This document shows, in pieces, positions 54,161 to 64,000 of a DNA stretch of 64,000 bases. The DNA lies in contig CAVWEH010000002.1 of assembly GCA_963753975.1 (NCBI GenBank), forward strand, positions 32,001 to 96,000, read 5' to 3'. Each line of letters starts with the position of its first letter. Positions within the stretch are counted from its first letter, which is position 1. A model generated the notes under the pieces. The model saw nothing but the letters and a program-made list of their open reading frames with translations, was not told the DNA's origin and ran no database searches. Origin of the DNA: an uncultured delta proteobacterium (GTDB lineage: Bacteria; Desulfobacterota; Syntrophia; Syntrophales; Smithellaceae). Made by a program: the position numbers and the translations under genes.

Positions 54161-56776
<2,616 letters not shown>

Positions 56777-58051: not shown

Positions 58052-59624
58052 CTAAAGTGGGATATTGTTATGTTTCTTGGATACCCTTATTTCTTTTTTA
58101 TCTTTCAGCCCCTCCAGAAGGGCAATGATTTTTTTTCGGGTGTCGCGCGGGACAATTATTTCTTCGATGATGCCCAGCGATGCTGCGAAATACGGATTAT
58201 TGAATTTTTCTTCATAGGCGGCAACAAGTTCCGCCCTTTTGGCCGCGGGGTCCTTGGCGGCGGAAATCTCTGTACGGTAAATGATATTGCAGGCACCTTC
58301 CGCGCCCATGACGGCGATTTCGGCTGTCGGCCAGGCCATGACATAATCCGCCCCCAACTGCTTACTGCACATGCCGAGATACGCTCCGCCGTATGCTTTG
58401 CGAATGATGACCGTTATTTTCGGCACCGTCGCTTCCGAATAAGCGTGAAGAAGTTTGGCACCGTGGCGGATGATGCCCGCCCATTCCTGATTGGTACCCG
58501 GCATGTAACCGGGAACATCGGTAAAAGTTAAAAGGGGAATATTAAAAGCATCGCAGAAGCGAATAAAACGCGAAGCTTTATCGGAAGCGTTTACATCCAG
58601 AACACCGGCTAAAAAACGTGGATTATTGGCGATGACGCCCACCGGCTTCCCCATGATGCGGATAAAAGCGACAATAATATTTTGCGCCCAAAGATCATGC
58701 AGCTCAAATATTTCGTTATTATCGGCAACGGCCTTGATGATTTTTTTCATATCATAAGCCCGATTGCCTTTATCGGGAATGAACGTGTCCAGTTCCGAGC
58801 ACATTCTTTCCGCGCTATCGGTGCAATTTACTACCGGCAGAGGAGAGTGGCAGCTGTCGGGAAGGAAGGAAAGCAGACTTTTTATTTTATGCAAGGCAAT
58901 CTGTGTCATTTTCCGTGACAAAATGGCAGACGCCGCTTTTCGTCGCATGCGCTACTGCTCCGCCCAATTCATCGTGAGTGACTTCTTCACCGATAACCGC
59001 TTTAATGACATCCGGTCCGGTGATGTACATATAGGAACTTTCTTTCACCATAAAGACCCAATCGGTAAGGGCCGGGGAGTAAACAGCGCCGCCGGCTGTT
59101 GGTCCCATGATGGCCGTAATCTGCGGAATGTAGCCGGAGCCGATAGTGTTGCGGTAAAATATTCCGCCGTAACCTTCGAGGGCTGGAACGCCTTCCTGAA
59201 TGCGCGCGCCGCCGGAATCGTTAAGGGCTACGAATGGTTTTTGGGCGGCAATGGCCATATCCATAACTTTCCATATTTTCTTCGCGTGCATTTCGCCGAG
59301 GCTGCCGCCGGAGCTGGTGAAATCCTGAGCCGCCGCAAAAACAACGCGCCCGTTTACTTTGCCAAAGCCGGTAATAACACCGTCGGAAGGGATTTCTTTT
59401 TTATCCAGACCAAAGAGGGTAGAGCGATGCTGAACAAAAAGCTGAACTTCCTGAAAAGTACCTTTATCAAATAATAAATCCAGACGTTCACGAGAGGTGA
59501 GCTTGCCGCCTTCATGTTGCTTTTTTATTTGCTTTTCGCCGCCCATCATTCTTATGGTTTGACTTTTTTTCTCAAACTCTTTAATTTTGCCTTGTGTTGT
59601 CGCTTTTTGTAAATCGTCACTCAT
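58052..59624 (-). CDS. Acyl-CoA carboxylase/methylmalonyl-CoA decarboxylase carboxyltransferase subunit (1-nt frameshift near 58890)
   Basis: DSGGARIQEG, GGAVYSPALTD, RFCDAFNIP, RKAYGGAY, KKHNNIPL. The two ORFs join by removing one base. Confidence 0.9.
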
Positions 59625-60626: not shown

Positions 60627-61478
60627 ATGAGAATATTGCTGTTGGGTCATAAAGGAATGCTGGGAAGCGACCTTCTTTTAAAACTTAGTTTACAGCATGA
60701 AGTTGTCGGGATGGATAAAGAGGAAATTGATATTGTTTCCGCAGAAGAATGCGTCAAGGCGATTAAAGAGTCAAAACCGGATATTGTCATCAACGCCGCC
60801 GCTTATACCAATGTTGATGGCTGCGAATCGGCCAAAGAAGAATGTTTTGCGATTAATGCCGAAGCCGTAAAAAATATTGCCGAGGCCTGCCGCAATAAAA
60901 ATATCCGCATCATCCATTTCAGCACGGACTATGTTTTTGACGGCACAGCCGGGAAGCCCTACAAAGAAGACGATAAATGCAATCCCATCAATGTCTATGG
61001 AGAATCCAAGTTGGCGGGAGAAAGTTATCTGCAATCTCTGGCGGATGATTACATTCTGATTCGCACTTCCTGGTTATACGGAGTGAAGGGCAAAAACTTT
61101 GTGCAGGCGATCTTGGAAAAAGCAAAAACAACACCGACACTTTCGGTTGTCGATGATCAGACAGGCTCTCCTACCTACACGAAAGATTTGGCGGCGGCGG
61201 TAGATTTACTGATTTCCCAAAACGTTAAAGGAATTTTTCATATAACCAACAGGGGCAGTTGCAGTTGGTATCAGTTTGCCGTGAAGATTTTGCAGGAATC
61301 CGGTTTAGATGATGTTAAGGTTATACCTATTAAATTCGATAAACTCCAAAGACCGGCTCTGCGTCCAGCGTATAGCGTTTTGAGCATGCAAAAATTTATT
61401 ACGACTACGGGAAAAACAATGCAGCCCTGGCAGTTGGCTTTACAAGATTATCTGAAAAGTATTAAGCAGTTGAATTAA
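60627..61478 (+). CDS. rfbD: dTDP-4-dehydrorhamnose reductase
   Basis: G..GMLG, NAAAYTNVD, STDYVFDG, YGESK, DQ.GSPT, RPAYS. Confidence 0.95.
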   Translation: MRILLLGHKGMLGSDLLLKLSLQHEVVGMDKEEIDIVSAEECVKAIKESKPDIVINAAAYTNVDGCESAKEECFAINAEAVKNIAEACRNKNIRIIHFSTDYVFDGTAGKPYKEDDKCNPINVYGESKLAGESYLQSLADDYILIRTSWLYGVKGKNFVQAILEKAKTTPTLSVVDDQTGSPTYTKDLAAAVDLLISQNVKGIFHITNRGSCSWYQFAVKILQESGLDDVKVIPIKFDKLQRPALRPAYSVLSMQKFITTTGKTMQPWQLALQDYLKSIKQLN

Positions 61479-61581
61479 TTAGCCTTGACACCGAAGTCCG
61501 ATTTAATTAAGTCAATCATCAACTTGACTTCTCAATTTAATCAGCAATACGGCGGAAATGCAGAGTTTTTCCACGATTTAA

Positions 61582-61708
61582 ATTGATGCCCGCCACAACT
61601 GGTGGGGCTCTGACTCCGCCGGATCAAAATGCTATCTGGGACGAGAACATTAATATCAAACACTGGCTGGAAAAGGAAGAAAACAAAGCTTTCCGGGAAA
61701 AGAAATGA
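61582..61708 (+). pseudogene. 3' remnant of a probable beta-helix repeat protein gene
   Basis: IDARHNWWGSD, then after a frameshift PPDQNAIWDENINIKHWLEKEENKAFREKK*; no upstream gene body. Confidence 0.5.
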
Positions 61709-61795: not shown

Positions 61796-64000
61796 ATGTC
61801 AAATTTACTTGAAATCACTGGCAATGACATAGCTCAGCTTGACGATACTGACCTTCGCGCATTAATCGGTTTGCTGTGTGAGGCAGATTATCGTTCAGCA
61901 GGTCTTCCTACTAAAGGAGTAATGTGGGGTGGTCATCAAGATGCTAGTGATGGTGGTTTAGATGTGGTTATTCGTAGCGAAACACCGCCGCCAACCAATA
62001 GCTTTATTCCTAGGAGCATAACAGGCTTTCAAGTAAAGAAGCCTGATATGTCCAGAGCAAAGATACTCAAGGAAATGAAGCCCAATGATATTTTACGGCA
62101 GGAAATCAAAGCTCTTATTGAAAAAAGTGGGGCATATATCATTGTCAGTTCAAAAGCATCTACAACCGACACGACCTTTAAAAATCGCACTGATGCCATG
62201 AAAGAGGCTATCGCAAATGAAAGTAATAACCAAAATCTTCACGTGGAATTCTTGGATTGTGGACGTGTGGCAACATGGGTACGCACACACCCTTCACTGA
62301 TCTTATGGGTCCGCAATAGGATTGGGCGTCAGTTGAGCGGTTGGCGTCCTTATGAAAATTGGGCAAAGACTCCCAATGGTATTGATGATGAGTATCTTTT
62401 GGATAAAGGATTAAGACTTCATGATGGGACTAAACCTACTACTGATAATGGACTTTCTGTTGAAGATGGCTTGCAAAGGCTCAGAAATATCCTTTCTATA
62501 CCCCGAACATCTATTCGTTTAATTGGCTTATCGGGTGTTGGAAAAACACGCCTGATTCAGGCTCTATTTGATGAAAGAATAGGCAAGCACCCTCTCTATC
62601 GTAATCAGGCATTCTATACGGACATGTCCGATAATCCTGATCCTGATCCTGGATTCTTTGCGAATAACCTTATTGCTGAAAAAACAAGGGCGATATTAAT
62701 TATTGATAACTGTCCTTCTGATTTGCATCATCGTCTAACAAGCGCCTGTTCTGCCACACATAGTAATGTTAGTTTGCTGACAGTTGAATATGACGTTCGT
62801 GATGACCTTCCAGAGGAAACAAGTGTATTCAGGTTGGAGCCAGCCAGTGAAGAGATCATTGAACGACTGATAAGAAAGCGCTTTTCGCATATCAGCCAAG
62901 TTGATGCCCAGACAATTGCAAAAGTTTCGGGGGGTAATGCACGTTTAGCAATTGCACTTGCCAATACGATGCAACAAGGTGAAAGCTTGTCGGGTTTTCG
63001 TAATGAAGAATTATTCGAAAGACTTTTCTGGCAGCGACATGCATTAAATGAAAACCTGCTTATTTCTGCAGAAGCATGTTCTCTTGTTTATTCATTTGAA
63101 GGCACGGATGTGGATTCAGAAAATTCTGAGCTTCGCTTATTAGCGTCCATTATTGGAAAGTCGGGTGCCGATCTTTATAGAGACGTTAAAAAGATTAAAG
63201 ACAGAGATCTGCTACAAGCGCGTGGTGTATGGCGAGCCCTGCTTCCACAAGCACTTGCCAATCGGCTTGCCAAACAGGCTCTTGAATCCATACCAAAAAA
63301 CACAATTGTTGATACTTTTTTATATAGTAAATCAGAACGTATAATAAAGTCATTTACCAGACGTCTTAATTTCCTTCATGATTGCGATCCAGCCATACAA
63401 ATAGTCAATGAGTGGCTGGCGCATGATGGTTGGCTTGGAAAAGAGAATTGTAACTTTAGTGCCTTTGGAATGGAGATATTCAGAAACATTGCTCCAGTTT
63501 CTCCAGAAAAAGCATTAGAAGCGATTGAACGAGCCGCAAATGGTGATAATGGTCAGCAATTTACTACGAGAGAAAACACCCACTATTATAGATTTGTAAA
63601 TCTATTGAGGCATCTGGCATACGATCCTGAGTTATTTAACAGAAGCATACAACTTATGTGCCGTTACGCACTTTCGGAAAAGCCTGATGAAAAGAATAAC
63701 TCTACACGTGATGCCGTTAAGTCTCTTTTTTATATTCAACTGTCAGGTACTCATGCCTCGGTTGAAGCAAGGGCAAAAGTCATTCAGGACTTACTAGATT
63801 CCGCCGATCAGGATAAGCAGGACTTAGGACTTACTCTTCTAGATGCAACATTAGAAACGTGGCGCTTTAGCTCATTTCATGAGTTTGATTTTGGAGTGCG
63901 ACCAAGAGATTTTGGGTATCAGCCAAAAACCAGCAAGGAAATTAGCCAGTGGTATGAAACATTTATAAATATCTGTACGAGCGTTGCCCTTTCGGGTCAA
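61796..64000 (+). CDS. PD-(D/E)xK-like nuclease + STAND P-loop NTPase + helical domain, putative antiphage sensor-effector (runs off right edge)
   Basis: Manually translated 735 codons with no stop: DGGLD...FQVK nuclease-like motif, Walker A GLSGVGKT (62525), Walker B ILIIDNC, SGGNA (GxP-like), then helical sequence. Confidence 0.78.
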   Translation, partial: MSNLLEITGNDIAQLDDTDLRALIGLLCEADYRSAGLPTKGVMWGGHQDASDGGLDVVIRSETPPPTNSFIPRSITGFQVKKPDMSRAKILKEMKPNDILRQEIKALIEKSGAYIIVSSKASTTDTTFKNRTDAMKEAIANESNNQNLHVEFLDCGRVATWVRTHPSLILWVRNRIGRQLSGWRPYENWAKTPNGIDDEYLLDKGLRLHDGTKPTTDNGLSVEDGLQRLRNILSIPRTSIRLIGLSGVGKTRLIQALFDERIGKHPLYRNQAFYTDMSDNPDPDPGFFANNLIAEKTRAILIIDNCPSDLHHRLTSACSATHSNVSLLTVEYDVRDDLPEETSVFRLEPASEEIIERLIRKRFSHISQVDAQTIAKVSGGNARLAIALANTMQQGESLSGFRNEELFERLFWQRHALNENLLISAEACSLVYSFEGTDVDSENSELRLLASIIGKSGADLYRDVKKIKDRDLLQARGVWRALLPQALANRLAKQALESIPKNTIVDTFLYSKSERIIKSFTRRLNFLHDCDPAIQIVNEWLAHDGWLGKENCNFSAFGMEIFRNIAPVSPEKALEAIERAANGDNGQQFTTRENTHYYRFVNLLRHLAYDPELFNRSIQLMCRYALSEKPDEKNNSTRDAVKSLFYIQLSGTHASVEARAKVIQDLLDSADQDKQDLGLTLLDATLETWRFSSFHEFDFGVRPRDFGYQPKTSKEISQWYETFINICTSVALSGQ

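Follow-up and report, generated by a model that had tools for sequence, protein, structure and literature searches.

What does the long reading frame at the right-hand edge of this DNA encode, and does its product represent a new kind of antiphage defence or a known one? The window, by which we mean the whole stretch of 64,000 nucleotides that was analysed (G000:C2:32001-96000), comes from the genome of an uncultured member of the Smithellaceae (G000, the source genome, 95% complete). A first-pass annotation had described an uninterrupted frame from ATG 61796 to the edge. This frame is real. It has 735 codons within the window, where the ORF listing gives it with an open 3' end, and it runs on for about 1.6 kb to a stop at G000:C2:97635 (window-equivalent 65635). 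We recovered the full gene, an intact 3.8-kb frame with a product of 1,279 amino acids. We interpret it, with a probability of roughly 85%, as a horizontally acquired single-gene member of Avs8 (PD-lambda-4A), likely a phage-capsid alarm that ends in DNA degradation and abortive infection. The features are listed in Table 1.

Table 1 Features of the Avs8A-homologue gene and its left flank, in window coordinates
Feature	Coordinates	Strand	Evidence
rfbD/rmlD (dTDP-4-dehydrorhamnose reductase), conserved left anchor, outside the system	60627..61478	+	TIGR01214, PF04321
Frameshifted 3' remnant of a 938-aa beta-helix lipoprotein gene, left edge of the slot	61534..61702	+	tblastn
Avs8A (PD-lambda-4A) homologue, first 735 of 1,279 codons	61796..64000	+	PADLOC PDLC03991; 30% identity to WP_000963924.1
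Putative N-terminal Mrr-like PD-(D/E)xK nuclease domain, residues ~1-180	61796..62335	+	Motif conservation, alpha/beta order of the model, ESM Atlas lead
STAND NTPase (predicted nucleotide-binding, helical and winged-helix domains), residues ~181-530	62336..63385	+	VIA-align, Foldseek
Walker A GLSGVGKT	62525-62548	+	Motif
Walker B ILIIDNC	62693-62713	+	Motif
GGNAR	62930-62944	+	Motif
Start of the predicted helical-repeat sensor (residues ~531-1279, mostly beyond the window)	63386..64000	+	Model and homology

Family identity of the gene

Of the 8,000 candidates scored, 2,945 are homologues at E<=0.001; the top 120 are mostly of equal length (about 1,278 aa) and 57-83% identical to the query. 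Since many homologues share the length and keep the motifs, the frame is not a chance one. The motifs that the first-pass annotation had named were all located in the protein (DGGLD at residues 52-56, FQVK at 78-81, GLSGVGKT at 244-251, ILIIDNC at 300-306 and GGNA at 379-382). Its spacing of 22 residues between DGGLD and FQVK needs a small correction, as the gap from D56 to F78 is 21 residues.

By sequence, the gene is homologous over its full length to PD-lambda-4A, now called Avs8A, and is a distant new member of a published family; the renaming of PD-lambda-4 as Avs8 is that of Nagy et al. (bioRxiv 10.1101/2025.07.02.662641). The PADLOC model PDLC03991 (PD-Lambda-4_A) matched query residues 4-1279 over model positions 3-1283 of 1283 with 1,096 bits (E=0), and the E. 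coli Avs8A protein scores 2,532 bits against the same model. At E<=1, PADLOC returned three PD-Lambda-4_A models only, the C-terminal model among them, and no Avs4 family model. BLASTP against WP_000963924.1, the accession given by Nagy et al. for Avs8A (sequence taken from E. coli genomes), aligned 1,270 aa collinearly with 624 bits, 30% identity and 50% similarity, and the lengths are 1,279 aa for the query and 1,283 aa for E. coli Avs8A. Identity is 33% over residues 1-200, 42% over 201-400 and 39% over 401-540; in the sensor it is 32% over 541-800, 22% over 801-1000 and 22.5% over 1001-1279. In a tree without a reliable root, in which two distant sequences did not group, the query and E. 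coli Avs8A fall into separate clades. Among the named members of the query's clade are Deltaproteobacteria, Desulfobacteraceae, Syntrophorhabdus and Sedimentisphaerales MAGs.

The first-pass annotation had placed the protein possibly outside the named Avs types and at the start of a defence island after rfbD. To general tools the protein does look unannotated: Pfam gave weak AAA matches under the cut-off only, NCBIfam gave none, and PDB sequence searches returned no match to the query or an Avs8-like chain and no solved Avs8 structure. An unnamed Avs type heading an island is nevertheless almost certainly the wrong reading, because the PD-Lambda-4_A/Avs8A match is full-length, and because the genes downstream are housekeeping genes and the 4.05-kb insert holds one gene. 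The unnamed type was ruled out on the family match. The annotation itself had held that a strong hit to a named Avs type would undo the novelty, and the PADLOC match is such a hit; the novelty is thereby refuted.

Nuclease, NTPase and sensor

The architecture proposed at first, a single-gene Mrr-like PD-(D/E)xK nuclease joined to a STAND NTPase and a helical sensor of the Avs/NLR-like kind, is supported by alignment and structure prediction. From motif and homology we infer a putative restriction-endonuclease fold for the N-terminal domain. The putative catalytic residues D52/D56 and Q79-x-K81 lie in codons 61949-62038, and E29, D52, D56, Q79 and K81 align to E28, D51, D55, Q78 and K80 of E. 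coli Avs8A. These five residues are conserved in 80-82 of the 83 alignment rows; for D52, D56, Q79 and K81 the count is 82, and the remaining row has a gap. The ESM Atlas top match of the domain was an Mrr_cat cluster (0.90), which serves as a lead only. The DSSP order of strands and helices, as we read it, fits the topology expected of a PD-(D/E)xK nuclease. A single-sequence fold of residues 1-520 was unusable (pLDDT 34), and whole-model structure searches did not isolate the nuclease domain, their match lists being filled by the NTPase and the repeats.

K250, T251, D304, G380 and N381 of the NTPase are kept in all 83 alignment rows. Walker A is identical to that of E. coli Avs8A, and the Walker B aspartate is also shared. 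GGNA had first been taken for a special variant of the STAND motif; GNAR is instead family-wide, and E. coli Avs8A has DGNAR. Our AlphaFold2 model (residues 1-1200, 72-row alignment, pLDDT 86.4, pTM 0.61) contains a predicted STAND core with helical and winged-helix domains after Walker A and B. With VIA-align, residues 184-524 matched Apaf-1 with Z 13.6 and an rmsd of 6.6 over 294 aligned residues, and the STAND region (about residues 184-529) matched NLRC4 (Z 13.4) and the NRC1 NB-ARC (Z 13.1). The best Foldseek matches of the model were a STAND-TPR protein and then Avs3 (8dgc; rank 2, E 6e-7). The long helical tail that had been claimed from the letters was seen by DSSP of the model.

The match to Avs8A is not confined to the NTPase, because the sensor alone (residues 541-1279) aligns to the Avs8A sensor over 732 aa with 25% identity and E 2e-76. 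The distal sensor (residues 801-1279) has 22% identity to E. coli Avs8A (E 3e-31). Because this part is so diverged, we checked capsid binding by complex prediction. No native capsid gene was found in the source genome with PF05065 or PF03864, so lambda gpE, from a phage of another host, was used as a stand-in. Query residues 601-1279 and gpE 21-341 were modelled with our own alignment and three controls. The ipSAE of the predicted sensor-gpE complex was 0.71 (runs 0.71, 0.72 and 0.71), and the best of the three controls reached 0.00. Solved complexes reach the ipSAE mark in 116 of 157 cases and mismatched pairs in 2 of 215, figures that are only roughly valid with our own alignment. At least 69% of contacts were common to the runs, and partner pLDDT was at least 73. 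The most confident predicted contacts join sensor residues 882, 920-921, 956, 984-990, 1022 and 1063 with gpE 202-220. As no Avs8-like PDB chain was found by sequence, a score that merely reflects training on a solved complex is less likely. In this model the sensor would recognise a major capsid protein of the HK97 fold.

Conservation is lower across the 66 predicted interface residues than across the remaining sensor (0.44 vs 0.54), and 15 of the 66 match the E. coli-type protein, a background level compared with 139 of 592 elsewhere. This variability would fit shape-based recognition and adds no independent support. It also bears on the alternative that the sensor of this Avs8-family nuclease-STAND protein now answers to a different trigger, or to a narrow set of capsids from its own host's phages, and would not respond to coliphage capsids. 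The separate clade and the 22% identity of the distal sensor point the same way as the variable interface. We consider a shifted trigger unlikely: the predicted lambda gpE complex scores far above the best control, the sensor is collinear with the Avs8A sensor and equal to it in length, and Lee et al. (Nature 2026, PMC13581612) report that even diverse homologues within an Avs family respond to a single family of trigger proteins and that cross-reactivity is minimal.

Locus, relatives and spread of homologues

Downstream of the gene lie a lipoprotein gene, mutL, miaA, a gene for a 388-aa protein without a family match, valS, nadC, ndk, birA, coaX and coaE. The insert in the source genome measures 4.05 kb and holds the Avs8A-homologue gene alone. 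The early description as the start of a defence island thus gave way to a solitary gene among housekeeping genes, and an island was ruled out. At the left edge, the lipoprotein remnant matches residues 883-938 of the lipoprotein in relative G002 by tblastn (83% and 59-63%). The 938-aa lipoprotein is whole in G002, with Pfam Beta_helix and GNA1162-like matches. The 5' deletion of this gene is apparently common to the source genome and relative G011.

Contigs of four DNA sequencing runs cover parts of the gene, and none among them spans its junctions independently; no RNA run is listed as carrying the sequence. The placement therefore rests on the G000 assembly and on synteny with relatives. Several housekeeping-type genes near the locus are split by frameshifts, at window 55333-56776 and 58052-59624 and at G000:C2:97830-100973 (the downstream lipoprotein gene and mutL). 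The two in the window are presumably tRNA-synthetase-like and carboxyltransferase-like. These splits are likely indel errors of the assembly.

The gene has a GC3 of 0.32 against 0.48+-0.07, in the lowest 1.2% among 584 long ORFs, and its codon use is atypical. A scan of the genome contigs found one locus only. The gene was not found in any of 40 relatives, and among other genomes of the order 2 of 200 gave weak matches only. Taken together, the atypical GC3, the absence from relatives and the scarcity in the order point to horizontal acquisition, as judged from composition and distribution. The rarity among relatives would also suit a passenger gene that lies intact in a permissive slot and is silent or non-functional, unexpressed or unable to assemble in its host, as would the lack of an adjoining regulator and of promoter signal above chance (2 promoter-like sites upstream vs 0.8+-0.9 by chance). 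Such a passenger is very unlikely in our view, given that the 3.8-kb frame and every conserved motif are intact, though the assembly splits neighbouring genes, and that all family-invariant residues are retained.

We compared the slot across relatives. Homology of G011, G013 and G002 to the source genome ends at C2:93700-93701 (window 61700-61701) and returns at 97756, with different cargo between. G011 carries an 867-aa PDC-S06 defence-candidate ATPase (L027:12747-15350, minus strand, E 3e-224), followed by an attC-like site. G013 carries three ORFs of 179, 415 and 157 aa without a confident family (L028:2198-4970), with a well-formed 91-bp attC-like site after the last; these are possible uncharacterised cassette cargo. 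G002 carries four ORFs, two of them with enzyme-family matches. In seven of the 12 congeners with an rfbD match, the lipoprotein gene follows rfbD with almost nothing in between; in one more a single small gene separates the two, and in another the contig ends. Of 20 family genomes outside the genus, 12 have the beta-helix lipoprotein gene and then, within 125-256 bp, the downstream lipoprotein gene, and eight are not syntenic.

An integron cassette origin of the gene was ruled out. The attC detector, a home-made rule that was loosened to catch the G011 site and is not IntegronFinder, found no attC-like site after the gene, and such sites were not enriched at Avs8A homologues (1 of 59 loci, compared with 3 of 400 gene ends taken as controls). 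No integron integrase was over the cut-off in the source genome (TIGR02249) or in G011, G013 and G002; two of these genomes are incomplete, G013 being 73% complete. One 8-bp repeat is common to both flanks; this is about chance for the lengths and was not counted as a target-site duplication. The shared slot boundaries may mark only where conserved sequence ends, and a dedicated hotspot is a lead. A tentative extension, which we consider doubtful, is that, in one subgroup of the genus, single pieces of cargo repeatedly land in the short slot that precedes the lipoprotein-mutL block and stand-alone defence genes are swapped there (Avs8A in the source genome, PDC-S06 in G011), some as attC-ended cassettes with no resident integrase found. 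If this were true, the single-gene Avs8A clade would be a mobile capsid sensor of environmental bacteria, missed by searches that need both A and B.

The partner gene Avs8B was not found. The source genome had neither a PDLC03992 profile match nor a tblastn match; with the E. coli B protein this profile does give a match. By tblastn Avs8B was not found in any of 80 metagenome loci, many of them with short flanks. None was seen among 144 neighbour ORFs of 20 homologue loci (the 29 loci have 220 ORFs, and these 144 are what a size cap and the removal of one duplicate locus left). Avs8B is reported to be dispensable for Avs8A defence (Nagy et al., bioRxiv 10.1101/2025.07.02.662641), so this negative result bears on the two-gene operon (A+B) only.

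Homologues occur on 44 plasmid records and 15 IMG/VR viral contigs, and the GenBank phage collection gave no match to the query. Three of 20 homologue loci have clear defence neighbours (AbiE with type I RM; CBASS; a PD-lambda-2B-like gene), and five of 20 have partial matches. Upstream of one homologue (L074:956-4930) lie a metallo-beta-lactamase-like gene and a gene whose 713-aa product matches E1/E2 and JAB, which suggests a ubiquitin-like defence operon. In E. coli (L044:1787-5533), the gene for a 1,248-aa hypothetical protein, oriented divergently to the adjoining E. coli Avs8A gene and beside an integrase, is possibly a further defence gene. A more distant group (L126 = G167:C108:12834-15815; plasmid matches H28-H40) has about 20-24% identity over much of the length. 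It includes members on cyanobacterial, rhizobial and haloarchaeal plasmids, and it may be a sister STAND family.

Proposed mechanism and comparison with known systems

As we picture it, the resting protein would be autoinhibited. Its helical sensor would bind a newly made monomer of an HK97-fold major capsid protein, and binding would lead to ATP-dependent oligomerisation through the STAND core. The oligomer would bring the Mrr-like domains together and make the nuclease active, which would likely degrade both phage and host DNA, ending the infection at the loss of the cell. Binding affinity, Mg2+/ATP-dependent DNase activity, phage protection and the tetramer are taken from the E. coli orthologue and would apply to the query by analogy. 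In the account of Nagy et al. (bioRxiv 10.1101/2025.07.02.662641), Avs8A binds lambda gpE (KD 127 nM) and the Bas21 capsid protein (14 nM), its Mrr DNase degrades dsDNA with Mg2+ and ATP, and mutation of the nuclease site abolishes defence; the Avs8 tetramer is modelled only. Sensing of major capsid proteins by Avs8 is also an independent result of Lee et al. (PMC13581612), who modelled it on the capsid A-domain. Avs8 was not found in the searched supplements of that paper, whose large files may list the query clade, and a term search of Vassallo et al. 2022 (PMC9519451) did not find a PD-lambda-4 passage.

Published work already covers the family as well as its trigger and effector. What the query adds is that, by prediction, Avs8 capsid sensing extends to a clade 30% identical to the E. 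coli protein. Its natural single-gene form matches the laboratory result that Avs8B is dispensable, and it offers a divergent orthologue for asking how fold recognition survives 22% sensor identity.

With Avs4, Avs3 and other AVAST systems the query shares the plan of effector, STAND and helical repeats, and the Avs4 effector is also an Mrr-like nuclease. It differs from Avs4 and the AVAST types in that no PADLOC model but PD-Lambda-4_A matches it at E<=1. The reported triggers are the portal for Avs4 and the terminase for Avs1-3 (Lee et al., PMC13581612). Avs7 and Avs10 have the same trigger class, the capsid, and are set apart by sensor architecture as Lee et al. describe it; Avs7, Avs8 and Avs10 are all reported to bind the capsid A-domain, and Avs7 uses EF-Tu (Lee et al., PMC13581612). 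In contrast to the two-gene PD-lambda-4 operon (A+B), no Avs8B was found downstream of the query. Its solitary position between housekeeping genes also differs from that of the E. coli copy, which is near an integrase downstream of ssrA. From E. coli Avs8A itself it differs in sequence (30% identity overall, 22% in the distal sensor) and in having no Avs8B found. The two proteins share the domain order, the nuclease motif, Walker A, the Walker B aspartate, GNAR, a homologous sensor and nearly equal length, and binding of lambda gpE is measured for E. coli Avs8A (Nagy et al.) and predicted for the query.
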